Of a stretch of 64,000 nt of DNA, positions 34,137 through 47,606 are shown piece after piece. The notes under the pieces are model-generated. The model was given only the letters and a program-made list of their open reading frames with translations. It made no database searches and had not been told where the DNA came from. The position numbers were made by a program, and so were the translations under genes. Position 1 is the first letter of the stretch. Each line of letters opens with the position of its first letter. The stretch comes from Gemmatimonadota bacterium (GTDB lineage: Bacteria; Gemmatimonadota; Gemmatimonadetes; Gemmatimonadales; GWC2-71-9): NCBI GenBank assembly GCA_036679645.1, contig JAZDCY010000011.1, positions 64,001 to 128,000 of the forward strand, given 5' to 3'.

Positions 34137-35218
34137 CCGCACCGCGACTCGAGATTTTCCTCGATAGGATCCACCACAACGCCTGCACGCTGATCGAACG
34201 GCTTGGGGCACGCGGCATCTCGGTCACGGGCGTCACGAAGGCGACCCTGGGCTCACCCGAGATCGCCAGCGTCTTGCTCCGGGCGGGGGTCAACGCGCTC
34301 GGCGACTCGCGCATCGAGAACATCGAGGCCATGCGCGGCGCGGGCGTCCCGGGACCAATGATCCTGATTCGCTCACCAATGCTCAGTCAAGCCGACAAGG
34401 TCGTCACCCACGCCGACGTGAGCTTCAACACGGAACCCGCCGTCATCCGCGCGCTCTCGTCCGCCGCGCAGGCGGCGGGGCGCACGCACGGCATCGTGCT
34501 CATGGTCGAGTTGGGAGACCTCCGCGAAGGGATCATGTCCGGTGACCTCGAGCACGTCGTGCGCGAGACGCTTCACCTCCCGAACATTGCGCTCGAGGGG
34601 ATCGGGACCAACCTCGCGTGCCACAGCGGCGTGGTGCCCGACAGCAGGAACATGGCGGAGCTGTCGGGGGTCGTCGATGCGATGGAGACGATCTTCGGTA
34701 TCACGATCGGCATCGTCTCCGGGGGGGGCTCCGCCAACCTCTCGTGGGCGCTCAGCGGCGCCGACACGGGGCGGATCAACGATCTCCGCCTGGGCGAATC
34801 GATTCTGCTCGGTTGCGACCCGCTCGACCGCGAACCGATCGAGGGACTGCACACCGATGCCATCATGCTCGTCGCCGAAGTGATCGAGTCGAAGGTCAAG
34901 CCGTCACGGCCGTGGGGCGACATCGCGCAAACCGCGTTTGGCGAACAGCCACGCGCCGCGGATCGCGGGTCCATCTCGCGGTCGATCCTCGCTGTTGGGC
35001 GCCAAGACACCGACGCTTCGGGCCTCAGGGCCCCTCCCGGCATCGAGATCCTCGGGACCAGCAGCGACCACCTCATCGTGGATACCGGCCGCCATCGCCT
35101 ATCGGTCGGCGCCGAGATGACGTTTCAGCTCAACTACAGCGCGCTGGTCCGCGCGATGACCTCGCCCTTCGTCGCGAAGATGGTTCTGAAGGCCGAGACC
35201 AGCCAGGTGCTGGTGTAG
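34133..35218 (+). CDS. Alanine/ornithine racemase-family PLP-dependent enzyme
   Basis: GVTK (PLP lysine), DSRIENI, MVELGDLREG, SGGGS, LRLGESILLG, SSDH; ATGA-coupled to DUF1611. Confidence 0.9.
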   Translation: MTAPRLEIFLDRIHHNACTLIERLGARGISVTGVTKATLGSPEIASVLLRAGVNALGDSRIENIEAMRGAGVPGPMILIRSPMLSQADKVVTHADVSFNTEPAVIRALSSAAQAAGRTHGIVLMVELGDLREGIMSGDLEHVVRETLHLPNIALEGIGTNLACHSGVVPDSRNMAELSGVVDAMETIFGITIGIVSGGGSANLSWALSGADTGRINDLRLGESILLGCDPLDREPIEGLHTDAIMLVAEVIESKVKPSRPWGDIAQTAFGEQPRAADRGSISRSILAVGRQDTDASGLRAPPGIEILGTSSDHLIVDTGRHRLSVGAEMTFQLNYSALVRAMTSPFVAKMVLKAETSQVLV

Positions 35219-35247
35219 GGCGCCCAACCCCGCGAATCCGTCATCCA

Positions 35248-35376
35248 TGGCCGCTACCTCAGGCACTACCAACATCTTTCAGCGCCCACCAGGTCCGCGG
35301 CCTCGTTATCTGGGGAAGCAACTTCGACGAACTGGATGTCCCTCACATCGTGAGGTTCAGAGCCAGTGAGCGATGA
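35248..35376 (+). pseudogene. C-terminal remnant of a 6-bladed beta-propeller-type protein
   Basis: ...VRGLVIWGSNFDELDVPHIVRFR* resembles the typical C-terminus of such proteins; no start or N-terminus. Confidence 0.4.
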
Positions 35377-35390
35377 GCCCATGAGCTGCG

Positions 35391-35428
35391 GACTGTCCCG
35401 CAATTGTCCCGGTACGGAGCGTCACTGA
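35391..35428 (+). repeat. 38-bp direct repeat, copy 1 (copy 2 at 42231-42268)
   Basis: GACTGTCCCGCAATTGTCCCGGTACGGAGCGTCACTGA; 36/38 identical to copy 2. Confidence 0.9.
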
Positions 35429-35673
35429 ACGCCTGTCCAGGTGGGACCCTTGGCAAGTTGCTGGCATCCGTCGCTCATGTGTGTGAAATGTGTGTGAATG
35501 GGGATCACCCAGGGGTACTCTAGACGCGACGAGGCACTAGAACGGGCCTGTTTCTAGGTCGAGAGTGACCTAGCGTGTACTGGAGTTCAAGGCTTTACGT
35601 GGCCTACTGCCTCAATGATCCGCTGGGGATGGTCAACTCGCCCGGTGGCCTTTCGGCGTGGCTGGCGGAGGTA

Positions 35674-35829
35674 CTACAGGACTCCACGGATCTTCTTGAG
35701 ATGTGACCGGACGAAGGGCTCGCTCACCTCGAACTGCTCGCCAAGGGCGTAAGTGTCGGAGAGCGAGGACTTCCGGAGGATGGGGCGCGGCAAGAGCAGC
35801 CCACCCGCAAAGACGAACGCTTGCCACTC
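35674..35829 (-). pseudogene. ImmA/IrrE (DUF955) metallopeptidase C-terminal remnant
   Basis: EWQAFVFAGGLLLP...ALGEQFEVS motif; HExxH N-terminal half absent. Confidence 0.55.
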
Positions 35830-36017
35830 TACGCTGACCGCTCCACCGCCAGGGGGTCAATAGGCCGGTCGCACATCCGGCACTGGGCAACGCCCGCATA
35901 GACACGATCGCGAACGGGTTTCAGGCACTTGCACGTCCGACGCGGGTCAGGCCGCCGCGCTTCACGCATTAGCCGATCGACCTGGTTGAGTATCTTCTCG
36001 CTGGTGATTGGTTTCAT
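35829..36017 (-). CDS. Small Cys-rich hypothetical protein (CxC...CxxC)
   Basis: 62 aa MKPITSEKILNQVDRLMREARR...CKC...CRMC; AGGTG RBS-like. Confidence 0.45.
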   Translation of the reverse strand: MKPITSEKILNQVDRLMREARRPDPRRTCKCLKPVRDRVYAGVAQCRMCDRPIDPLAVERSA

Positions 36018-36105
36018 CCCCAACACCTAATCTAGGGGCTGTGCGGCGGAGGCACGGCACATCAACTGACCGACGGGACACCGTCGTGTCAGCGCGAGGG
36101 TGGGG

Positions 36106-36270
36106 GAGCACCGCCGCGAGTTCGGGGCGCAGCACCTTGACTGCCACCTTGCGCTTGTGCTTCAGGTCTTCGGCGAGATAGACGATCGCCATCCCGCCCG
36201 AACCGAGTTCACGCTCGATGGTGTAGCGGTCGGCGAGGGCGGTGGTGAGGCGATCAATGTCGTTGCTCAT
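36106..36270 (-). pseudogene. Ser/Thr kinase 5' stub (55 codons, MSNDIDRL type)
   Basis: MSNDIDRLTTALADRYTIERELGSGGMAIVYLAEDLKHKRKVAVKVLRPELAAVL, then similarity ends abruptly. Confidence 0.85.
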
Positions 36271-36312
36271 ACAATCGACGATTTGCGATTTGCGATCGAA
36301 CGGCTCATTACC

Positions 36313-36367
36313 TCCCACACGTCGCTTTAGCGACATCAGCCGCGCCGCGACTTTAGTCGCGACGACC
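36313..36367. repeat. Tandem-hairpin element, copy 1
   Basis: CCACAC-GTCGCTTTAGCGAC-ATCAGCCGCGC-CGCGACTTTAGTCGCG-ACGACC. Confidence 0.92.
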
Positions 36368-36425
36368 CCGTGGCAGTATCTCCATACTGGTTCCCCACCT
36401 TAACTACTAGCACTCCGGCGCCGGC

Positions 36426-39152
36426 TCAGGGCGCCGCCATCCGCCGCTTCAGTTCCTCGACAAAATTGAAGACCACGACGACGTGTACAGCGGCGTCACT
36501 CTCCCCGCGGATCATCACGAACTCTTGGCCGTCCGGGGTGATGTCGTATTCACGGGAAAACGGGTTCGAGGCGTATTGTGCGGCCGGGAAGAGCACACGT
36601 GGTGCGCCGGTCTGAAACGTCGTTCCGGCAGTGACCGGCACGGAGATCAGGTTGCTGGCGGCATCGAGGTAGAACAGCTCGCGCCCGTTGTGGCTCCAAG
36701 CCGGATTGATCCCCCCCGTAGTGGAGATTTGGTACTGCGCGCTGCCGGCGTCGGGGAATGGGCGAACGTACACTTCCCGCCGCCCCGACTCATTCGAACT
36801 GTATGCAATCCACCGCCCATCGAAAGACACCGCCGGCGAGAGCTCTTCGGCGGGCGTGGCGACGACTGCACGTGGCACGGTGTCCACTCCGGGCCTGATC
36901 GCCAGGATGTCCGCGTTGCCGGCCTCCTGATCGTCGGTCCGGAACACCATCCACGTCCCGTCCGGCGACCACGTGAGGCCACCGAGGCCGCGGTCATCGT
37001 AGAACTCGGTTTTGCTGAGGCTGCCCGACCCATCGGCCCTCACTTCGAACAGGTTCGAGCCCAGCGCGGCAGGGGTTTCTTCCCGATTGGAAAGGAACGT
37101 GATGGTGCCTGTACCGGGCCGCCAACTGGGGCGGTAGTTGGTACTCCCGTCGAACGTCAACCGCGACTTGGGGCTGCCGTCGAGCGATTCCACCCACAAA
37201 TGACTCCGGCCATCGACGCCGGCCATGCTGACCACGAGGTGCAGCCCGTCCGGCGAGAGCGTTGGCTGCTGCACCGTGAAGTCGCGGAGATCCGCCGCGA
37301 CGCGACGCGACTCCCCGTTCCGGTCCACCCACACGGCCTGAAATGACTGCACCACGCCCTTGGCGTAGGCGAGCGTGCCGTCAGGCGAGAGCGAAAAGTC
37401 CGCCGTTCCCCCCGCCGTCACCGCCACGGTGTCCGACAACTCCACCTCCCGACCGGACAGGCGCAGGGAACCTGCGTCGAATGGCGCCGCCCATAGCACC
37501 CCGTTCGCCTTCGCGAAGACGAGGTACCCGGCCGACGAATACTGGGCGCGTATTCCCTGTAACAGGATCTCGATCTTTCCGGTGCTCAAATCCACGACGC
37601 CGATCGATGCGCGCTCGGGATCGGTCGCGTTGCGGGCAGGAATCACCGTGAGAACCGCCGCACGCGCGCCGGGAAGCACCTCGGGCCACAGGTACCGGAG
37701 ATCGTCTCGCTCCGCGTCGAGCGTGGCGACCGTCTCCAGCGCCCCTCCACGTGGCGAGACACGGACGAGACCGGCGATCCCACTGACGTAAATCCAGCCA
37801 TCCGTTCCCCAATCCAGTCCGCCTCCGTCGTCCGTCACGGACGTGAGGCCGGAGTCGGCGACAATGGCGGACAGCCCGCCGCCGAGCGGCACTACGTGCA
37901 GCGTATGGGGCCCGGTGAGGTACGCGACCGAATCGCCACTGGGCGAAAACGCCGCGCAACAGCCTTCATCGAGCGACTGCGGTAGCCTGGTGGCCTGCAG
38001 TTGGTCCCATTGCCGAAGCCAGTATTGGGTCCTGGTGCCGACCCCCGGTCCGGAGTACAGCAGGCCGGCTCCGTCCGGCGCGAGGGTTAGGATAGGGCCG
38101 GGACCCGCCGTGTACCGCGGCCGCTGGTTGGCGAGCATATCCAGCATGAGTCGCATCGTTGGAGGCGGTGTGGTGTGTTCTCGCCAGGCCAGTTTCGTCG
38201 TCACGACGCCCAGGATGAGTGCCGCAACTGCGACAATGGCCACGGCGCGCAGCCCGAGTGCACGTAATGGCTGAATCGCGCCTCTTGCCTGGCTGACGGC
38301 GCGGGTGTCCGATGCGTATGACGGATTCGCAAGCGCGTCCGCAAAGGCTTTGGCACTCGCGAACCGATCCGCCGGTAGTTTCTCCAGCGCTTTCGCCACT
38401 GCTGCCGCCACGTGCGGCGACACCGATTTCCGCACCTTCGTGACGGGCTGTGCCTCCTCGGTTACGATCTTCATGATGATCTGCTGGGCCGACGAGCCCA
38501 CGTGCGGCGGGCTTCCCGCCAGCATCTCGTAGAGCACGCTACCCAGCGAATAGATGTCGGAGCGATTCGTGAGGTCCTTCTCCGCGGTCGCCTGCTCGGG
38601 ACTCATGTAGTGCGGCGTGCCGAGCGAGAGGCCCGTCTCGGTCATGCGTCCACCCGCTGCCGCGCTCACCGCCAACGCAATGCCGAAGTCCGCCACCATC
38701 GGACGGCCATCGTGGAGCAGGATATTCTCGGGCTTGATGTCCCGATGGATAACGTTGTTGCGATGTGCGTAGTCGAGCGCGTCAGCGATGTCGGTTGTGA
38801 TCTTCACCGCCTCATCGATGGAGAGTTGCGTTTCGCGGTTCAGCTTGTCGCGCAGGGTCTCGCCCTCGATGTACGGCATGACGTAGTACAGGAAGCCGTC
38901 CGTCTCTCCGGAATCGAACAGCGGCAGGATGTGCGGATGTTGGAGATTGGCGGTGGTCGTGATCTCCTGCAGGAAGCGTTCGGCACCGAGCACGGCTGCG
39001 AGTTCAGGGCGCAGTACTTTGACCGCGACCATGCGCTTGTGTTTGAGGTCTTCGGCGAGATAGACGGTCGCCATGCCACCCGCACCGAGTTCGCGTTCGA
39101 TCCGGTAACGGTCGGCGAGAGCAGTGGAGAGGCGATCTACGTCGTTGCTCAT
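36426..39152 (-). CDS. Ser/Thr kinase - TM - TolB/PD40 beta-propeller receptor
   Basis: HRDIKPEN, DFG, GTPHYMSPEQ; one TM; repeated (F/W)SPDG blades. Confidence 0.95.
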   Translation of the reverse strand: MSNDVDRLSTALADRYRIERELGAGGMATVYLAEDLKHKRMVAVKVLRPELAAVLGAERFLQEITTTANLQHPHILPLFDSGETDGFLYYVMPYIEGETLRDKLNRETQLSIDEAVKITTDIADALDYAHRNNVIHRDIKPENILLHDGRPMVADFGIALAVSAAAGGRMTETGLSLGTPHYMSPEQATAEKDLTNRSDIYSLGSVLYEMLAGSPPHVGSSAQQIIMKIVTEEAQPVTKVRKSVSPHVAAAVAKALEKLPADRFASAKAFADALANPSYASDTRAVSQARGAIQPLRALGLRAVAIVAVAALILGVVTTKLAWREHTTPPPTMRLMLDMLANQRPRYTAGPGPILTLAPDGAGLLYSGPGVGTRTQYWLRQWDQLQATRLPQSLDEGCCAAFSPSGDSVAYLTGPHTLHVVPLGGGLSAIVADSGLTSVTDDGGGLDWGTDGWIYVSGIAGLVRVSPRGGALETVATLDAERDDLRYLWPEVLPGARAAVLTVIPARNATDPERASIGVVDLSTGKIEILLQGIRAQYSSAGYLVFAKANGVLWAAPFDAGSLRLSGREVELSDTVAVTAGGTADFSLSPDGTLAYAKGVVQSFQAVWVDRNGESRRVAADLRDFTVQQPTLSPDGLHLVVSMAGVDGRSHLWVESLDGSPKSRLTFDGSTNYRPSWRPGTGTITFLSNREETPAALGSNLFEVRADGSGSLSKTEFYDDRGLGGLTWSPDGTWMVFRTDDQEAGNADILAIRPGVDTVPRAVVATPAEELSPAVSFDGRWIAYSSNESGRREVYVRPFPDAGSAQYQISTTGGINPAWSHNGRELFYLDAASNLISVPVTAGTTFQTGAPRVLFPAAQYASNPFSREYDITPDGQEFVMIRGESDAAVHVVVVFNFVEELKRRMAAP

Positions 39153-39187
39153 ACGATCGACGGTTGGCGATCGAACGACTCGTTACA

Positions 39188-39242
39188 TCCCACACGTCGC
39201 TTTAGCGACATCAGCCGAGCCGCGACTTTAGTCGCGACGACC
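39188..39242. repeat. Tandem-hairpin element, copy 2
   Basis: One mismatch versus copy 1 over 55 bp. Confidence 0.92.
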
Positions 39243-39328
39243 GTAGCCATACCACCCGCACCGAGTTCACCTTCGATTCGGTAGCTGTCGGCCAGTGCTA
39301 CGGTAAGGCGGTTGAGGTCGTCGGCCAT
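39239..39328 (-). pseudogene. Ser/Thr kinase 5' stub (30 codons, MADDLNRL type) interrupted by the hairpin element
   Basis: MADDLNRLTVALADSYRIEGELGAGGMATV|. Confidence 0.85.
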
Positions 39329-39507
39329 CGCGTTGGTATTCCCTGCAGAGAGAGGGCCAAAGATGGGCCTCAGTGGACGGGGTGGCTAGCTGGTGATTGT
39401 CGCGGAGTTGCTCCGGTGGGGCGACACTGAGCGGCGATGCTCGGCGGCATGAAGCCGTCTGCCGACGATAAATCGGCCGCCGGATGACAACGTTGCCCGC
39501 GAGACTC

Positions 39508-39566
39508 TTGACACCGCCTCCGCACCGGTATATTACCATACTAGCACACCAGTACACTAATACACT
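39508..39566 (+). promoter_or_regulatory. sigma70 promoter and probable GntR/YtrA operator
   Basis: TTGACA-17 bp-TATTAC, followed by repeated TAGCACAC/CAGTACAC/TAATACAC. Confidence 0.6.
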
Positions 39567-39580
39567 CTGCGAGGAGGCGT

Positions 39581-39991
39581 GTGCTGATCACTATCGATGA
39601 AACAGATCCGCGGCCGATCTACCAGCAGATCGCGGATGAGGTTCGGCGCGGGCTGGTGGTCGGGACCCTGCGTGCCGAGGATGCGTTGCCGTCGGTGCGG
39701 CAGTTGGCGGCAGAGCTGCGGGTGAATCCGAACACAGTGCAGCAGGCATATCGCGAACTGGAGCGGGAGGGACTGGTGCACGTTCGGCGCGGGAAGGGGA
39801 CATACGTGGCGGAGATGCGTGATGGTGGTAGGGCGCGGGAGCGGAGCACGCTGGCGCGGTCGGTGGCGCAGCGGGCGTTGCGGGAGGCCCACCGGAACGG
39901 GCTGAGTGCGGAGGAGTTGGTCGAGGCGATTCGGCGCGCTGCGAGTGGCGGCGCGCCGGCGGCAACGAGCGCGGAAGGAGCAAACGCATGA
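39581..39991 (+). CDS. GntR-family regulator (YtrA subfamily)
   Basis: PIYQQI, LPSVRQLA..VNPNTVQQAYRELE..RGKGTYV. Confidence 0.93.
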   Translation: MLITIDETDPRPIYQQIADEVRRGLVVGTLRAEDALPSVRQLAAELRVNPNTVQQAYRELEREGLVHVRRGKGTYVAEMRDGGRARERSTLARSVAQRALREAHRNGLSAEELVEAIRRAASGGAPAATSAEGANA

Positions 39992-40989
39992 TGGACAAGC
40001 TGCCGACGGAACTGACCACAACCGGTCCGCTGGCCGTGACGACGCGGTCGCTGGTGAAGCGGTTCGGCCGCACGACAGCGCTGGCGGGCTTGGACCTGGC
40101 GGTGCCGGAGGGTTCCGTCTACGTGCTGGTCGGGCGGAACGGGGTGGGGAAGACGACCACGATCAATGTGCTCCTGGACCTGGTGGTCGCGGATTCGGGC
40201 ACGGCGGAGGTGTTCGGATTGGACACGCGCGCCGAGGGGGCCCGCGTGCGTGCGCAGGTGGGGTATGTCCCGGAGCGGCACGAAGTGGCGTACGGCTGGA
40301 TGCGGGTGGGCGCGCTGATGCGCTACCATGCCGGCTACTATCCGGCGTGGGACGCGGCGTATGCCGACGAGTTGTCGCGACTGTTCGACATCCGCGCGGA
40401 CATCAAGTTCGGCAGGCTCTCGAAAGGCCAGAAGCGCCGAGTGCAACTGCTGCTCGCCCTCGCGCATCGGCCACCGCTGCTCGTGATGGACGAGCCAACC
40501 GACGGGCTCGACCCCGTGATGCGGGAGGAGGCGCTCTCGGCCCTCGCGGCTCATCTGGCGCGCTTCCCGACGACGATTCTGGTCTCGACCCATCAGGTGC
40601 ACGAGATAGAGCGACTGGGGGACCATCTCGGGCTCGTGCGCGCCGGTCGGATCGAGGCGCAATTCAGCCGCGACACGTTGCGCCGCTACCTGCACAGCTA
40701 CCGCCTCGAGGTACCGGACGGGTGGGCGGGCGTGTCGGCGATGGAGGATGTGGTGATCCGCCGGAACGGGTCGGGTCGAGAGATTGCGTGGACGATCTGG
40801 GGCAATGAGGCGGAGGTGACGGAGCGACTTGGGGGCGCGGGGGCAACGGTCCGGCAGGTCGAGCCGCTGACGTTGGAGGACGCGGCGTTGTCGCTCCTGA
40901 CACAGCGCGCGACGTCGAACGGGGCCGATGGGAGTGAGATACTTCAAACGATACCGGCCGGCGTCGGACCGGCGCATGGAGGAGAGTGA
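39988..40989 (+). CDS. ABC transporter ATP-binding protein (YtrB-like)
   Basis: GRNGVGKTT, LSKGQ, MDEPTDGLD. Confidence 0.93.
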   Translation: MMDKLPTELTTTGPLAVTTRSLVKRFGRTTALAGLDLAVPEGSVYVLVGRNGVGKTTTINVLLDLVVADSGTAEVFGLDTRAEGARVRAQVGYVPERHEVAYGWMRVGALMRYHAGYYPAWDAAYADELSRLFDIRADIKFGRLSKGQKRRVQLLLALAHRPPLLVMDEPTDGLDPVMREEALSALAAHLARFPTTILVSTHQVHEIERLGDHLGLVRAGRIEAQFSRDTLRRYLHSYRLEVPDGWAGVSAMEDVVIRRNGSGREIAWTIWGNEAEVTERLGGAGATVRQVEPLTLEDAALSLLTQRATSNGADGSEILQTIPAGVGPAHGGE

Positions 40990-41795
40990 GCATGCGTGCG
41001 AATGTTGCGGTGCGCGAGCTGCGGCCGACCCCCGGGATCGGGGTCTCGTTCCGCCAACAGGCGTGGCTCCTCGGTATGAGTGGCCGCTGGATCCTTCAGA
41101 TCCTGGGTCTTCTGGCGTTACTGATGCTGATCGGCTTGAGCGACGTCCCCCGCGAGGCGCCGCGGATCCTCATCACTTCGATGCTCGCAATACTGGGCGG
41201 CACGACCTGGGCCGTGATGGTGTGGCACGGAGAGGGGCCGGACCGCCGGTCGTATCACTGGTCGCTCCCGGTCCCGAGACCGGCCCATGACCTGGCCCGG
41301 GTGGCCCTGGGTGCGGCGTACCTGCTCGCCATCTGCGCGGTGCTGGCCGGCGCCGGCGCGATTGCGGCATCCGCGAACGGCACGTTCGATCGTTTCGCGG
41401 CGACCGCGCCGGAGGCGTGGGCGAACTTCTTCGTGGCGCCGCTGATCGTCTACCTGTTGGTGACACCCGTGGTGCTCTGGAGCGACTACCCTATCACCCG
41501 CTGGGTGTTCGCGATCTACTTAGGTGGGGGGCTGCTTGCCGCGATCCTCAGCTGGCAGGGGTTCGACCTGCTGGTAGAGGGCCTCGAAAAGATCTTCGAT
41601 GCAGAGAACTGGGGGCTCGCGGCCGCGCTGTTCGCCGGGATCCAGCATGAGGTGAGCGCGTCCATGGGGCTGCCCCCCCTCGTCGACCTGTGGTGGACCG
41701 GCGCGGTGCTGTGGTTCGGGCTGGGCCTCGCGCTCACGGTATTCACCGCGCTTTACCGACCGGACGATCTGCGACGATTGGTGCGCCGCGCGTAG
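40986..41795 (+). CDS. ABC-2-type permease-like membrane protein
   Basis: About 6-7 TM segments, YHWSLPV motif, operonic with the ATPase. Confidence 0.75.
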   Translation: MSMRANVAVRELRPTPGIGVSFRQQAWLLGMSGRWILQILGLLALLMLIGLSDVPREAPRILITSMLAILGGTTWAVMVWHGEGPDRRSYHWSLPVPRPAHDLARVALGAAYLLAICAVLAGAGAIAASANGTFDRFAATAPEAWANFFVAPLIVYLLVTPVVLWSDYPITRWVFAIYLGGGLLAAILSWQGFDLLVEGLEKIFDAENWGLAAALFAGIQHEVSASMGLPPLVDLWWTGAVLWFGLGLALTVFTALYRPDDLRRLVRRA

Positions 41796-41852
41796 GCAAG
41801 TTCTCCACCAGACCAGGTGCCACGAGTCGTTGAGGGCTCAGCCCCGCTCTGT

Positions 41853-42166
41853 CGGCGTAGCGACTCGCCCTCCACGAACGGCATCACGTAGTAGAGGAAT
41901 CCGTCGGCTTCGCCCGAGTCGTACAGGGGTAGGATGTGCGGATGGCTGAGCTGGGCCGCGATCTCGATCTCGCGAACGAACCGCTCCGAGCCGAGGGCCA
42001 CAGCCAACTCCTGCCGCAGCACCTTGACGGCCACCTTGCGGCGGTGCTTTACGTCCTCCGCCAGGTAGACGGTGGCCATCCCGCCGCGCCCGCTGCCGAC
42101 CTCACGCTCAATGGCGTAGCGGTCCGCGAGGGCTGTAGTGAGGCGATTCAGAGGGTCGTCGGCCAC
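41853..42166 (-). pseudogene. Ser/Thr kinase 5' stub (about 105 codons, MADDPLNRL type)
   Basis: Subdomains I-V only (to YVMPFVEGESLR); no HRD or DFG; 2-aa insertion in the Gly loop. Confidence 0.88.
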
Positions 42167-42230
42167 CGCTTGATACTCCTGCAGCGAGTGGGCCCAAGAT
42201 GGGTGACCCGGCGCCGCGTCGCTGGCGGGT

Positions 42231-42268
42231 GACTGCCCCGGAATTGTCCCGGTACGGAGCGTCACTGA
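42231..42268 (+). repeat. 38-bp direct repeat, copy 2
   Basis: GACTGCCCCGGAATTGTCCCGGTACGGAGCGTCACTGA. Confidence 0.9.
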
Positions 42269-42328
42269 GCGGTACGCAGCGTCACATCCTCCCGCCACCT
42301 GCACTTGGAAGTGTGGCGGCGTCTGTAA

Positions 42329-42721
42329 CTACTTGAGTCGCACGAGATGATCCCGAATCCACCGGGCGACGTCTCCCTCTGACGCCTCGCCCGCAGCAAC
42401 CGCGCTGACGATGGCGACTACCTCTGGCTCCTCGACGGCGAGGCCGTGGCCGTTCAAGCCGAGGAAGATCACGGTTGCGAGAAAGGCAATCCGCTTGTTG
42501 CCATCCCGAAAGGGATGGTTCTTCGCGAGCCCGTAGAGATAAGCCGATGCAAGAGAGGCAATGTCTGGTCGCCGCTTGTACGTCCATTTGTGCTGCGGCC
42601 GCGCGAGCGCGGACTCGAGGAGACCTTCATCGCGCAGGCCGGCCAGACCGCCGTGCTCGCGGATCTGGTCGAGATGCACGGCCTCGAGGACAAGGCGCGG
42701 CACCCAGCGCGGCTCTCTCAT
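42329..42721 (-). CDS. doc: Death-on-curing (Doc/Fic) toxin
   Basis: GLRDEGLLESALARP; HPFRDGNKR Doc-type motif. Confidence 0.93.
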   Translation of the reverse strand: MREPRWVPRLVLEAVHLDQIREHGGLAGLRDEGLLESALARPQHKWTYKRRPDIASLASAYLYGLAKNHPFRDGNKRIAFLATVIFLGLNGHGLAVEEPEVVAIVSAVAAGEASEGDVARWIRDHLVRLK

Positions 42722-42727
42722 GCGGCA

Positions 42728-42955
42728 CTATTGCGCCAGTTCGCGCAGCGCGTTCCGATAGCGCTTGGCGGCGTCCGCCGCGACCGCCAGGGCCTCCTGG
42801 GTGAGCGGATCGTAGGGCGTCAACAGGATGCCCTCCGCCGTCTCGACGGCGAGGAGGCTATCACCGGGCTCGAGGCGGAGCCGATCGGCCATGTCTTTGG
42901 GGAGGGTGGTACCGACCGAGCCGCCGACCCGTCGCACTTTGACTCGTTTGACCAT
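42728..42955 (-). CDS. AbrB/MazE-family antitoxin
   Basis: KVRRVGGSVGTTLPK; YRNALRELA; upstream AAGTA...TACTT imperfect palindrome at 42961-42982. Confidence 0.9.
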   Translation of the reverse strand: MVKRVKVRRVGGSVGTTLPKDMADRLRLEPGDSLLAVETAEGILLTPYDPLTQEALAVAADAAKRYRNALRELAQ

Positions 42956-43092
42956 GTCAAAAGTATAATATAAGTGCTACTTACAGACAACGACGTCTAG
43001 CCACAGCAAACGGCGGGAGCGGATCGAGTCCCTCGGCTGTTCGCGAAAGCATAGGCGGGAGTGCCGTTGCTGGTAGCCGGCGCACTGTCGCT

Positions 43093-46000
43093 TCAGCGCC
43101 CCCGCGCCAGCTCTTCTAGTGCCAGCCGCGCCGACGTGACCTGATCGCGCAGTTCCGGGTCGGGATTCGACCAGAGATCGAGGAATTGCCGGTAATACTC
43201 GATGGCCGCTTCCGTGTCACCGCGAGCCTCCGCCAGCTCGGCCAAGCGGCGCAACGCGAACGGCAACTGCACTCGCGCGAAGCCCCATGAACCCGACTCG
43301 GAGGTGAGGCTGGCGTGAACAGCCAACTCGAAGTGAGCAACAGCCGAGTCCGGCTCCGCGAGCTCATCGAACGCCAGCCCGTACATGAGATGAGCGTGCG
43401 TTAGCCATCCGTCTAGCACGTAGCCCAGGCCATCTATTTCGCGTAACGCCGCAACCGCACCGTCCGAATCACGTTGGGCCAACGACCGGGCGGCACGGGC
43501 CATTGCCTCAGCATATTGAACCGTCCACGGAGCTGCACCTGACGGCTCCGGATACGTCTCCCCGAACCGCTCCAGGAGGTCGGCATGTCCGAGCAGCCCA
43601 GCACCGACACCCAGGGTCGTCCGGTAGACCACCCGCTCGAATCCAGTGACGGAATCAGCCGCAAAGCGGTCGAGCGCGGCCTCGAGTCGCGCGCGCGCCG
43701 CCGTCGGCCGCCCCCTCATCTCCTCGGCCAGAGCGACGCCGAGCACCACGTTCGAATAGTCGAGGTACCGGCGCTGCTCGCCGTAGTACCGTCCCGCAGC
43801 CTCCATGCGACCGATGGCTTGGCTCACGCGGCCATGGGTAGCGGAAAGCGACCCGCAAAAGCTGCGGGCGTCGGCGAGGCCCGCGGGACTGCCGGCCTCC
43901 CCCAGCACCGAGTCACACAGCGCATCCGCTCGATCGTAGTCTCCCGACCCGACGGCGTAAGCGCGGGACCAACGTGCGGCTGGATCCGCGAATCCCCGTG
44001 CCCTGGCGGCGGCGATGAGGCTGTCGGCTGCAGCCCACCGTCCCAGGTCAATGGCCGTGTAGATCGCGTTGCTGTACCTCAATAGGCTATTGGGATCGAG
44101 GGTGAGAGCCTTTAGGTAGGTCACATACGCTCGCTCCGTCTCGCCCAGATAAATGATCGCAACGGCCAAGTTGTTTACCGCACGGGAATCGTCCGGGTAC
44201 TGGGCAAGGAGGGCATCGTACACGTCGACGGCACGGTGAATCTCGTACCGTTGATAGTGATAGGTGCCCTCGACATGCATCCGCTCCCGATCCGTCAAGC
44301 GATCGCGCCGCTCGTAGGCCCGCTGCGCGTACTCCCTACCCTGGGCGCGGCGTTCCGAATTGCCAAACGCCACGCCGGCAAGCCGATAAGCCATGGCGAA
44401 GCTGGTATCGAGGCGCGTCGCGGCCACGGCGAGTTCTGCCGCCCGGGGGTAGTCAGCGTCGATCTCCAGAGCTGCCTTCGCCAAGGCGTACCTGCGAAGC
44501 GCTTCCATTGATGTTGTGGTCACTTCAGGAAGCGGACGACTCTGCCGAATCGCAGCGGATGCCTCCCCCAACCGACTTCTCAGCTCGCGCGAAAGCGCCT
44601 CCACACCCTCCAGCAAGCGCTCGGCCCGGGCAGCCGTCCGCACCGCGATCAGCTCCCGGCCGGTACCCGGCTGGATGACGCGAGCGCTGAACACATAGTC
44701 ATCGCCCAGGCGCGCGACCGCCGGCACGAGCACCGCCGCCATCCCTTCCCGCTGCGCGATCTCCAACGCGACAGTCTCATCCAGCTTCGTGGTGTCGGGA
44801 AGCCCCATTCGCCGCAAGACGGGGACGATCTGGTTGCGGCCCCGGACATTGACGTACCGCGATTGCTGGAGATCAACGCTCAAGGCGGTTTGCGCGGCGA
44901 GAGCGATCTCTTTTTCGCTCTCCGGGGCAACGAACTCCGCCAAGACGATCCAAGCTCGCTCCCCGAATGCCTCGCCCGCCGACCCATGGGCCTCCGTCAC
45001 CCGCGCAGAGCCGCGCACCACGATGAGCGTGCTCATCATGCCCAGGACGGCGAACGCCAGCGCGCCGCCCATGATCGCCCGCGGCCAGGTCAGCTGCCGG
45101 ACGATCGGTTTCCCGGTTCGCTCCGGAGCGGGCCGCGGCTGGCGCGCCTCTTCGCGCACGAACGCGGTGGCCAGTACGACGGGAAAACCGAGCAGCAGCA
45201 ATATGAGCGCCGCCGCGTAGACCCACTCGGGCAGCAGGTAGCGCGCGACGATCTGGTCGGCAACCGCCAGCACAGCCCAGGAGGCGACCACGTAGATGGT
45301 GAGAGCGATCATCACGGCGCGTGCGCGGCTGCCGCGGAGCTTCACTGTTGTTGGGGTCGCTGTAGCCACAACCGCCGCCGACTCGCGCCTCGCCAACGCC
45401 TCAGCAAACTGTCCAACCGGGCTGAAGCGGTCCGCCGGCGTCTTCGCGAGCGCACGCGCCACTGCCGCAACTACGTCGGCGGGCACTGCAGGTCTCAGAT
45501 TCGTGATCGCGGGGGCCTCAACCGCCACGTGCTGCTGGATGACGCTCTCCACCGTCGGGCCCGTGAACGGCGGCTGCCCCGCGAGCATCTCGAAGAACAC
45601 GCAGCCCAGCGCGTAGAGATCGCTTCTGCCATCGAGGTCACCACTCCCCACCGCCTGCTCGGGACTCATGTAGCTCGGCGTCCCGATCGCGAGCCCGGTC
45701 TCTGTCAACCGGTCACCACCCGCGGCGCTGATCGCTCGCGCAATGCCAAAGTCCGCTACGACCGCGTGCCCGCTCTCCAGCAGGATATTCTCCGGCTTGA
45801 TGTCGCGATGCAGCACGTCGTGGCTGTGTGCGTAGGAAAGCGCGTCCGCGACTTCGCGTGCGATCTGCACCGCGTCGTCGATGGGGAGTTGCTTTTCACG
45901 ATCGAGCCGGTCTCGCAGTGTCTCGCCTTCCACGAACGGCATGACGTAGAACAGGAAACCGTCGGCCTCGCCCGAATCGAGCAACGGCAGGATGTGCGGG

Positions 46001-46215
46001 TGGGTGAGACGGGCGGTGATCTTGATCTCGCGCAGGAATCGTTCGGGGCCGAGCGCGTGGGCGAGATCGGGCTTCAGCACCTTGAGCGCGACGTGACGCT
46101 CGTGCTTCACGTCTTCGGCCAGGTAGACGGTGGCCATGCCGCCCGCACCGAGTTCGCGTTCGATCCGGTAACGGTCGGCGAGAGCAGTGGTGAGGCGATC
46201 GACGTCGTTGCTCAT
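43093..46215 (-). CDS. Ser/Thr kinase - 3TM - TolB-N-like - TPR receptor
   Basis: HRDIKPEN, DFG, GTPSYMSPEQ; TM bundle; TTTSMEALRRY; TPR helices. Confidence 0.95.
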   Translation of the reverse strand: MSNDVDRLTTALADRYRIERELGAGGMATVYLAEDVKHERHVALKVLKPDLAHALGPERFLREIKITARLTHPHILPLLDSGEADGFLFYVMPFVEGETLRDRLDREKQLPIDDAVQIAREVADALSYAHSHDVLHRDIKPENILLESGHAVVADFGIARAISAAGGDRLTETGLAIGTPSYMSPEQAVGSGDLDGRSDLYALGCVFFEMLAGQPPFTGPTVESVIQQHVAVEAPAITNLRPAVPADVVAAVARALAKTPADRFSPVGQFAEALARRESAAVVATATPTTVKLRGSRARAVMIALTIYVVASWAVLAVADQIVARYLLPEWVYAAALILLLLGFPVVLATAFVREEARQPRPAPERTGKPIVRQLTWPRAIMGGALAFAVLGMMSTLIVVRGSARVTEAHGSAGEAFGERAWIVLAEFVAPESEKEIALAAQTALSVDLQQSRYVNVRGRNQIVPVLRRMGLPDTTKLDETVALEIAQREGMAAVLVPAVARLGDDYVFSARVIQPGTGRELIAVRTAARAERLLEGVEALSRELRSRLGEASAAIRQSRPLPEVTTTSMEALRRYALAKAALEIDADYPRAAELAVAATRLDTSFAMAYRLAGVAFGNSERRAQGREYAQRAYERRDRLTDRERMHVEGTYHYQRYEIHRAVDVYDALLAQYPDDSRAVNNLAVAIIYLGETERAYVTYLKALTLDPNSLLRYSNAIYTAIDLGRWAAADSLIAAARARGFADPAARWSRAYAVGSGDYDRADALCDSVLGEAGSPAGLADARSFCGSLSATHGRVSQAIGRMEAAGRYYGEQRRYLDYSNVVLGVALAEEMRGRPTAARARLEAALDRFAADSVTGFERVVYRTTLGVGAGLLGHADLLERFGETYPEPSGAAPWTVQYAEAMARAARSLAQRDSDGAVAALREIDGLGYVLDGWLTHAHLMYGLAFDELAEPDSAVAHFELAVHASLTSESGSWGFARVQLPFALRRLAELAEARGDTEAAIEYYRQFLDLWSNPDPELRDQVTSARLALEELARGR

Positions 46216-46216
46216 A

Positions 46217-46256
46217 CCACACGTCGCTTTAGCGACATCAGCCGAGCCGCGACTTT
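46217..46256. repeat. Tandem-hairpin element, copy 3 (second hairpin cut at its loop)
   Basis: CCACACGTCGCTTTAGCGACATCAGCCGAGCCGCGACTTT, then kinase-stub sequence. Confidence 0.9.
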
Positions 46257-46306
46257 CGGTAGCGGTCGGCCAGTGCTGCGGTCAGGCGATTGAGGTCGTC
46301 GGCCAT
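46256..46306 (-). pseudogene. Ser/Thr kinase 5' stub (17 codons, MADDLNRL type)
   Basis: MADDLNRLTAALADRYR|. Confidence 0.8.
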
Positions 46307-46476
46307 CGCTGCGTATTCCCTGCTGCGAGTGGGCCTAACATGGGCGCCCCGGCTCCGCGTGGCTAGGCGGGCGACTGTCCCAACGAGCCGCAGCCTTCAG
46401 CGTCGGAGCCGCTTCTGGCACACCGGCTGCGCGGATTTGATCACGTCGCCAGGCCGAGCGTACGTTACGTTGGGAC

Positions 46477-46764
46477 ATGCCCGTGACCGCGAAGCTGTCC
46501 CGCGAATTCTACGACCGCTTTGGCGACAAGGTCGTCGACGAGCTGGTGGGGTTGCTCAACGACATGGACGCAACGTTCCGGGCCGAGTCGCGGGAATTGA
46601 ACGATCAGAACGTCCGGCGTTTCGAGGCCCGGCTCGAGCAGCACGCGGCAGAGTTGCGTGTGGAGCTGGCGGCGCTCAAGGCTGAGCTGATCAAGTGGAT
46701 GTTCCTGTTCTGGCTGGGCACGGTCGCCACCATGCTTGGGATCGGGCAGTTGCTGATCGGCTAA
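46477..46764 (+). CDS. DUF1640-like coiled-coil protein with C-terminal TM
   Basis: LKAELIKWMFLFWLG C-terminal signature. Confidence 0.75.
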   Translation: MPVTAKLSREFYDRFGDKVVDELVGLLNDMDATFRAESRELNDQNVRRFEARLEQHAAELRVELAALKAELIKWMFLFWLGTVATMLGIGQLLIG

Positions 46765-46827
46765 CGGATACGGTCAGCAATGAGCGGTGTCGTCTCGTCA
46801 GGCATCCTCAACATCGCGAGCAATGGT

Positions 46828-47220
46828 CTACCACCTAGAGACCGCTACGTCGGTCTGTGAGAAATCGTCACCTACGAAGAGTAGGGGCTCATCGCGGGCC
46901 ACCGACAGCGCATAGCTGAAGCAGTCTCCGAAATTCAACCCCGCCGGGTGTCGTCCGCGACCGAACCGCAAAGCTGCGTCGCGGGCGAGGTACGCCTGCT
47001 CCTCGCCGACGGGGACCACTTCGGCGCCGATTCCGCGCAGTAGGCGGTCGAGTTGCGGTTCGCCGGCCTCGCCAAAGCGTCCCAGGAGAACGAGTGCGGC
47101 CTCGACCACGGTCGCCGCCGACACGAGTCTGGTCGCGTCGGCTTCAACGGCCGCCACGAGCCGACCCGCAGTGGGCTCGCGAGTGAGGATCCCTATGAGG
47201 GCCGACGTGTCGATGACCAT
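46828..47220 (-). CDS. vapC: VapC PIN-domain toxin
   Basis: MVIDTSALI, LNFGDCFSYA, LLFVGDDF. Confidence 0.93.
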   Translation of the reverse strand: MVIDTSALIGILTREPTAGRLVAAVEADATRLVSAATVVEAALVLLGRFGEAGEPQLDRLLRGIGAEVVPVGEEQAYLARDAALRFGRGRHPAGLNFGDCFSYALSVARDEPLLFVGDDFSQTDVAVSRW

Positions 47221-47223
47221 GAG

Positions 47224-47475
47224 TCAGCGCGGGAGACCGTGGTCGTCGTAGTCGAGGATCTGCTCGGCGGATCGTGCATCCAGCACGGGAAGCCGAGCGA
47301 GTCGCTCCTGGACCCGCCGGATTTCGGCTCCGACGCGCCCGCGGGACAGCCGGGTTTCACGTTCGAGACGCTCGCGTAGTGCCATGCGAATCGCCTCAGT
47401 CAGCGATTCGCCGGTGGCTGCGGCGAGCGCTCGGGCGAGGCGGTCCGTCTCGGGGTCTTTGATGCTTAGTGCCAT
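47224..47475 (-). CDS. vapB: VapB antitoxin (Rv0623-like)
   Basis: [27 protein letters not shown]...YDDHGLP; AT-rich TCTAG/TCTAT repeat operator at 47477-47510. Confidence 0.9.
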
Positions 47476-47606
47476 TTCTAGTCTTCTATATGAATATCTA
47501 TAAATCTAGACTACTTGAGTACGGCGCGCAAGGAGGAGGGAACCAAGGAGGCAAGAGGGAACGTGTTCTCTCATGAGCGGTCACCCGCAGTGAACGGGTC
47601 TACCAA

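Follow-up and report, generated by a model that had tools for sequence, protein, structure and literature searches.

A dispersed double-hairpin repeat at kinase starts of a Gemmatimonadota genome, probably carried along by recombination among kinase paralogs

In a tandem array of serine/threonine kinase genes from a Gemmatimonadota bacterium, a short element made of two hairpins is found immediately upstream of three kinase starts, which raises the question of what brought it there. The window, i.e. the whole stretch of 64,000 nucleotides under analysis, corresponds to C4:64001-128000 of a 4.05-Mb draft genome (G000). A first-pass annotation had proposed that the element is the recombination or cleavage signal of kinase cassettes or, alternatively, a cis-regulatory RNA of this kinase family. 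We found that the three copies are half-units of a dispersed, GCCGAG-tagged double-hairpin family of repetitive extragenic palindromic (REP) sequences. The half-unit is likely the recognition end of a Y1 transposase, and the copies in this window are probably passengers of a kinase 5' module spread by homologous recombination.

Each copy consists of two hairpins with a CTTTAG core separated by 11 nt, on the plus strand and upstream of a minus-strand kinase start (at 36270, 39152 and 46215 for copies 1, 2 and 3, respectively). Since the quoted motif is on the plus strand and the kinases are on the minus strand, an mRNA would carry its reverse complement. The three copies are as follows:

36321..36361, plus strand: REP half-unit copy 1, with a 5-bp hairpin (36321-36334), a linker containing the GCCGAG tag with one mismatch (36339-36344) and a 6-bp hairpin (36346-36361); outer flank intact.
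39196..39236, plus strand: REP half-unit copy 2 (hairpin 1 at 39196-39209, tag at 39214-39219, hairpin 2 at 39221-39236), with its outer foot fused to a kinase stub via a 4-nt microhomology (39239-39242).
46223..46256, plus strand: REP half-unit copy 3 (hairpin 1 at 46223-46236, tag at 46241-46246), with hairpin 2 interrupted after 46256, cut in its loop with a 2-nt microhomology to the stub; the spacer of about 36 nt to the start codon is deleted.

These features had been correctly described before, including the microhomology join of copy 2, the broken loop of copy 3 and its missing spacer, within ranges that included a few flanking bases. Hairpin 1 did not appear in any of 200 shuffles of the window. 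A covariance model trained on 24 sequences, copies 1 and 2 among them, gave scores of 69, 65 and 49 bits to the three copies, the next match in the window being at 13 bits, and fold z-scores ranged from -2.8 to -4.0. This model was used instead of a first, loose definition of the unit, which gave 63 matches versus 22 in shuffles. Besides, a low-depth contig from another study (X4 record 17) spans the junction between stub and element at copy 2. The claim that the element precedes every MSND-type kinase start is true but weak, as there are only three such starts in the whole genome, all of them in this window and copies of one duplicated 5' module, and the one behind copy 1 opens a stub of about 55 codons rather than a full kinase.

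The same element was found on other contigs of the genome. At C53, inverted copies bracket an IS200-like Y1_Tnp gene of the HUH type, whose product has both the HUH and the catalytic Tyr motif and scores above the cut-off of the IS200 model NF033573 (59.1 bits, cut-off 55) but below that of the REP-associated tyrosine transposase (RAYT) model NF047646 (28.7 bits, cut-off 80). Another Y1 gene, at C50, is flanked by a sister family that has the tag in common. We examined 30 homologous Y1 loci (30 of 90 matches) and detected the repeat nearby in 24 of them, on both sides in 18. Y1 copies are divergent and mostly 1-3 per genome, with five in one genome (identity among the three copies of G019 not included). 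The pattern of hairpin 2 matched 19 of 41 genomes, including inverted pairs and tandem arrays. With E<=0.001, the covariance model gave 32 matches in this genome, sister family included, and 11-98 matches in five relatives picked because they have copies.

Among the 24 aligned copies the GCCGAG tag is nearly invariant, while a CGTC run that overlaps the first stem in some copies is not. The first-pass annotation had allowed for a passively co-duplicated 5' leader with no covariation; we observed that 7 of 11 stem pairs change on both sides, a number reached by none of 500 shuffles. Together with the recurrent Y1 neighbor, this supports its reading of the element as a REP linked to an HUH enzyme. 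By analogy with IS200/IS605 and TnpAREP, as outlined in parts of PMC8266576 and PMC3333891, the C53 enzyme likely recognizes the element as its single-strand DNA end and would bind the hairpin in single-stranded form. Regarding other enzymes of the genome, a third Y1 subfamily (C92:24840-25600, L002) is flanked by a different palindrome family, of the CCCCGGGCG..GCCCGGGG type, which is kept in several relatives (homologs L043, L044, L047, L053 and L057).

The element is not kinase-specific. By protein search, the genome contains 64 full family kinases among 95 starts, and with a wider DNA profile we counted 86 full kinases and 33 stubs. Of the 15 best model matches, only four are located within 300 nt of a family start, and of the 32 at E<=0.001 ten are. 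In the five relatives, 2 of the 150 matches listed (of 190) are near one of the 150 starts listed (of 240). Conversely, 75 of the 86 full kinases do not have the REP upstream and 11 do (hand-corrected counts). The annotation had asked whether the element is restricted to kinase 5' regions and had named as the contrary outcome a dispersed REP mostly away from kinases, which is what we found. The array does not resemble an integron either: the element is carried by 11 of 86 kinases and junctions fall at codons 17-33 (integrases were not searched for).

To follow how the three copies arose, the parts of the array around them are given below:

36106..36270, minus strand: MSND kinase stub K1, about 55 kinase codons and then unrelated sequence to a stop at 35962.
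36426..39152, minus strand: full Ser/Thr kinase K2, 908 aa, with Pkinase and PD40 propeller repeat.
39153..39195, minus strand: spacer from copy 2 to the K2 start; together with the element, 90% identical over 90 nt to the region of copy 1 and its spacer.
39239..39328, minus strand: MADD kinase stub (stub 2) of 30 codons, the last of them in the glycine-rich loop; the reading frame continues through the element and its stop overlaps the K2 start codon.
39329..39400, minus strand: conserved upstream region common to the MADD and VADD stubs and to an intact kinase of G001; presumed promoter or ribosome site.
41850..42166, minus strand: VADD kinase stub, about 107 codons, with no REP attached.
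43093..46215, minus strand: full Ser/Thr kinase K3, 1040 aa, with Pkinase and TPR; chimeric.
46255..46306, minus strand: MADD kinase stub (stub 3), 17 codons, fused into the hairpin 2 loop of copy 3.
46307..46380, minus strand: upstream region of stub 3; up to about 15 nt ahead of the start, it resembles the region of the VADD stub more than that of stub 2.

K3 is identical to K2 at 86 of its first 90 nt and falls to about 75% afterwards, where other paralogs match best. Stub 3 and stub 2 share 47 of 51 positions, whereas the region upstream of stub 3 matches those of the VADD stub (49/58) and the intact G001 kinase (49/59) better than that of stub 2 (40/58). Hence, judging from these alignments, the stub, element and start of copy 3 appear to have moved as one block whose two crossovers are in kinase-associated homology and not at the hairpin, and K3 is a chimera. 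Copy 3 later lost two short segments. Thus, the idea of a signal dedicated to kinase cassettes is not supported, as most copies of the element lie away from kinases and most kinases lack it; what does stand is that, across genera, stubs are repeatedly joined to hairpin 2 at its outer foot.

In this genome, 7 of 33 stubs show the arrangement of a kinase 5' stub followed by a REP (one of them added after the script missed it), and about 26 end without a REP. We also found it in G014, G126, G243, G259, G327, G347, G368, G395, G401, G420 and G491, giving a total of 12 genomes from seven genera, which include kin and are not independent, and in most cases a second kinase start follows. One metagenome-assembled genome and two metagenome contigs show it as well. 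A scan of the family gave 13 matches in 10 of 401 genomes, 11 of them real stub-REP joints, with none for a reversed-pattern control; a scan of the order gave five matches in 4 of 301 genomes, one by chance. Out of seven matches in a GTDB-wide pattern scan, four were inspected, yielding one real case (L084) and three chance matches in coding sequence. The metagenome scan gave 24 matches, comprising two with stub, REP and kinase, four REPs with an unrelated upstream match and no kinase, and 18 by chance, while nine matches in reverse orientation comprised one stub fusion, one REP without stub and seven by chance.

Whole units, with REPs on both sides of a Y1 gene, lie between stub and kinase start at two loci of G491 and in G368, and in G243 the Y1 gene with its repeats likewise lies between the two. 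The Y1 gene is always opposite to the kinase at these loci, and the three proteins compared are 69-81% identical. At L084 the unit is amplified in tandem and its middle copy is a start/stub hybrid, a structure that draft misassembly could mimic.

All 21 junctions that the script measured cleanly are at codons 20-33, and their distance to the outer stem foot is 1-8 nt. A further two that it misread fit by eye, and another is in reverse orientation; about 12 distinct types can be told apart in all. One of these types was seen at seven loci in five genomes of two genera, behind differing stubs. We found no target motif common to the junctions. The stop of the stub overlaps the next start codon in 6 of 10 cases of the first set, copy 2 included; in a fresh set the stop was exactly on the next start in one of five cases and within 8 nt in three of five, all from one junction lineage. 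These positions hint at retained translational coupling from stub to kinase. At G401 C467 (L129), a stub is joined to a REP in reverse orientation via the GCCGAG tag, which matches Ala-Glu codons of the kinase itself. A target-duplication model was tried and rejected, given that stub and downstream start are near-identical in only 2 of 11 loci.

We consider that these observations are probably best accounted for by three steps. First, a Y1 system, with which the repeats are seen associated, would seed them in intergenic DNA, including the spacers of tandem kinase arrays. Second, a rearrangement would fuse the outer foot of a hairpin to the glycine-rich-loop codons of a kinase, giving the junctions observed and the product promoter and stub, REP, spacer and second kinase start; possible causes are slippage provoked by the hairpin, with microhomology, and an HUH nick. 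Third, the module, flanked by kinase 5' sequence, would be copied into other paralogs by homologous recombination, producing new stubs and chimeric kinases such as those seen here while a full kinase is kept downstream. The REP-edge junction would thus form once and the module would then spread among about 60 paralogs. The loss of two short segments from copy 3 would be the last event.

Several points weigh against this account. Junctions within 1-8 nt of the stem foot are tighter than a pure passenger model needs, and the search patterns were anchored on the glycine-rich loop, so that junction positions are biased. The sequences for the covariance model and the pair counts were selected by the hairpin 2 pattern. 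Neither two congeners nor the other sequencing contigs compared yielded an empty allele of this locus. All genomes are drafts in which repeats can be misassembled, L084 above all. Finally, the stub is, on average, only slightly more similar to the downstream start of its own locus than to those of others (33.9 versus 31.4 of 45 positions, 11 loci), which simple deletion between tandem paralogs also predicts, and the near-identity in only 2 of 11 loci leaves room for independent deletions.

One could argue that an active Y1 enzyme nicks the outer foot of the hairpin and transfers the strand into kinase 5' ends, giving circles or deletions, so that the hairpin is itself the recombination signal. 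The position of all measured junctions near the stem foot and the Y1 genes with repeats between kinase starts in G491 (twice), G243 and G368 are in favor of it. Besides, a stub is present beside 4 of the 11 kinases with an upstream REP, compared with 1 of the 75 without it (3/10 and 2/76 by script before hand correction) and none of nine with heptamer-repeat spacers. TnpAREP of E. coli cleaves and recombines bacterial interspersed mosaic elements in vitro, according to the part of PMC3333891 on this enzyme. Outer-end stub fusions also outnumber those of the reverse scan by 11 to 1, but this bias is expected anyway because inverted pairs point their outer ends both ways. Against this activity, no conserved cleavage tetranucleotide appears in 124 outer ends (at most 0.41 bits at every position outside the stem) and no headless kinase remainder was found behind the modules in the window. 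A kinase start is found within about 1.5 kb at only 3 of 30 Y1 loci, including the one from this genome, and the crossovers of copy 3 are in kinase homology. Moreover, a stub of G327 (L122) is fused to a different, second repeat type followed by a kinase start which, together with the many REP-free stubs, indicates that the layout does not need this hairpin. Taken together, we regard this activity as unlikely.

A combination of both processes is conceivable, although we hold it to be rather doubtful. A domesticated IS200-like REP system could use the kinase family as a harmless landing pad, with HUH nicks making the junctions and modules, with or without the transposase, homing into paralogs by recombination; these would restore a full kinase, often leave its translation coupled to the stub, and exchange promoters and starts between the receptor kinases.

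Somewhat harder to sustain is a purely passive history, in which REPs came to lie in kinase spacers by chance and were followed by tandem duplication and independent deletions at hairpin edges, with no spread of a module. Copies 1 and 2 do fit unequal crossing-over in a tandem array, the junctions in the window have microhomologies, and stubs mostly end at nt 50-90 of the profile regardless of the presence of a REP. The metagenome scan, with its two complete layouts against four REPs lacking a kinase, is also in line with it. Nevertheless, the same junction was found behind different stubs, in several paralogs and in two genera, and the double crossover at K3 transplanted a module, so we consider this history quite improbable.

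The cis-regulatory RNA of the kinase family was rejected on its distribution and is very improbable: the stable, covarying hairpins stand near start codons and the region may be translated, as the frame of the stub often runs to the downstream start, but neither restriction to the gene family nor a fixed upstream orientation was observed (at C53 the element is opposite to the kinase behind it), the distance to the start varies from 7 to 50 nt, Rfam gave no match at E<=1 in 35000-47500, and covarying pairs, equally expected of a DNA hairpin, do not tell RNA from single-stranded DNA.

We then compared the system with those described. As in REP/REPIN-RAYT systems (REPtrons; TnpAREP class 2, Quentin et al. 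2018), short hairpins with a conserved 5' tag flank a low-copy Y1 HUH gene in inverted orientation, and dispersed inverted pairs and tandem arrays are patchy across genomes (from 0 to about 98 matches). In contrast, the tag is GCCGAG instead of GTAG or CGTC, there are two hairpins per unit, and the enzyme, assigned from model scores and not from a tree, comes out as IS200-type and below the cut-off of the NCBIfam RAYT model (enzyme classes as given in bioRxiv 279083 and PMC5581495). The element behaves as a REP/REPtron system missing two membership features, the tag and the enzyme class. With IS200/IS605 (TnpA class 1) it shares a Y1 protein of about 130 aa with the HUH and catalytic Tyr motifs, subterminal hairpins and an adjacent IS200-type TnpA, the latter at C53 and not in the window. 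It differs in that gene copies are divergent (the C53 gene is 47% and 31% identical to the two others of the genome), both ends have the same repeat, no cleavage tetranucleotide is conserved and repeats are dispersed without the gene. Our literature search, with subscription papers and supplements outside its reach, found no description of this repeat family, of kinase-stub modules or of the kinase-flanked layout, and the main text of PMC3733652, supplements excluded, mentions no Gemmatimonas, CGAG or TGAAG. The spread of REPs in living cells is still not well understood (PMC8266576).

Among systems that tie a Y1 gene to a growing gene family, the closest is the TnpAREP-prochlorosin system of marine picocyanobacteria (bioRxiv 2020.03.09.984088), where a Y1 transposase lies alongside a paralog family that has expanded and is diversifying. 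A diversifying role of recombination was put forward there, with no strong evidence for or against causation found later. That enzyme belongs to subclass 2.1, while in our case stub-REP junctions and chimeras can be read in the sequence. Shyamala and colleagues reportedly found, in 1990, REP sequences at the join-points of Salmonella tandem duplications, in REP-by-REP events; REPs are at rearrangement junctions here too, but a REP edge joins kinase coding sequence and spread is via kinase homology. Integrative elements such as tRNA-targeting islands restore their target gene, and our module similarly carries a copy of its target's end, the full gene remaining after entry. Unlike them, it shows no integrase or att core (no search was aimed at integrases), its targets are about 60 protein-coding paralogs and its crossover points vary.

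Other features of the array and of the kinase family are the following:

39431..39459, strand not assigned: degenerate remnant of the same hairpin superfamily, with 27-28-nt matches beside REP copies on C7 and C66.
42329..42955, minus strand: toxin-antitoxin pair inside the array, with a MazE-like antitoxin and a Fic/Doc toxin.

A second toxin-antitoxin pair, a PIN toxin with an Rv0623-like antitoxin (46828-47475, minus strand), is at the array border, next to a small CCDC90-like gene (46477-46764, plus strand; weak Pfam match) whose homolog adjoins the element in G001 C47. A 41-nt repeat at 35391-35431 and 42231-42271 (93% identical) lies upstream of the common kinase upstream region and at the array edge, and also occurs in G001 C27 (L079); it presumably resembles integrase arm-type ends. 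On C7 and C24, motifs of this kind come after tRNA-like ends, again upstream of kinases. At G000 C11:12620-12710, between kinase stubs and REP pairs, a sequence resembling a tRNA was seen by eye; its variable arm is long and its anticodon is apparently GAC. A sigma-70 scan found no site in 39329..39400, and the promoter and terminator scan gave one promoter-like and two terminator-like sites, not above shuffles. Contigs of the sequencing set X1, which may come from the source sample itself, agree with the assembly only in pieces, with no informative joints.

Genome-wide, about 60-90 paralogous Ser/Thr kinases are arranged in tandem arrays, with about 33 5' stubs. Many of these stubs break off close to the glycine-rich loop, with toxin-antitoxin pairs or other small genes behind them, which suggests that kinase starts serve as general landing pads. 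In many kinases of the family, an ATCTT motif stands about 6-12 nt ahead of the start codon and a ribosome site is missing, which points to leaderless transcripts. Tandem 7-mer repeats with a second short repeat type occupy kinase spacers, for example at C8:46.9k, 52.5k, 76.9k and 79.7k, C53:125.7k, C7:160.3k and, in the window, 36271-36300; we take them to resemble the repeats around four-helix-bundle and GxxExxY genes. In G019 (C2:38-214 and 2686-2859, L082), two tandem kinase paralogs share the same stop and frameshift near codon 80, due to either gene conversion or an assembly artefact.

According to these results, the three copies are real and can for the most part be put down to a new REP variant that paralog recombination carries along. 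One feature is unusual: the layout of kinase 5' stub, REP and second kinase start, which is new and present in 12 genomes of seven genera. Its readable junctions, at about 12 distinct positions, make it possible to test whether they are the work of an IS200-type HUH enzyme. Should that enzyme have no role, what we describe is a new REP family together with ordinary paralog recombination. The module also offers a plausible way for a repeat and its transposase to persist in a large paralog family with no gene being killed, and would at the same time reshuffle kinase starts and their upstream regions.

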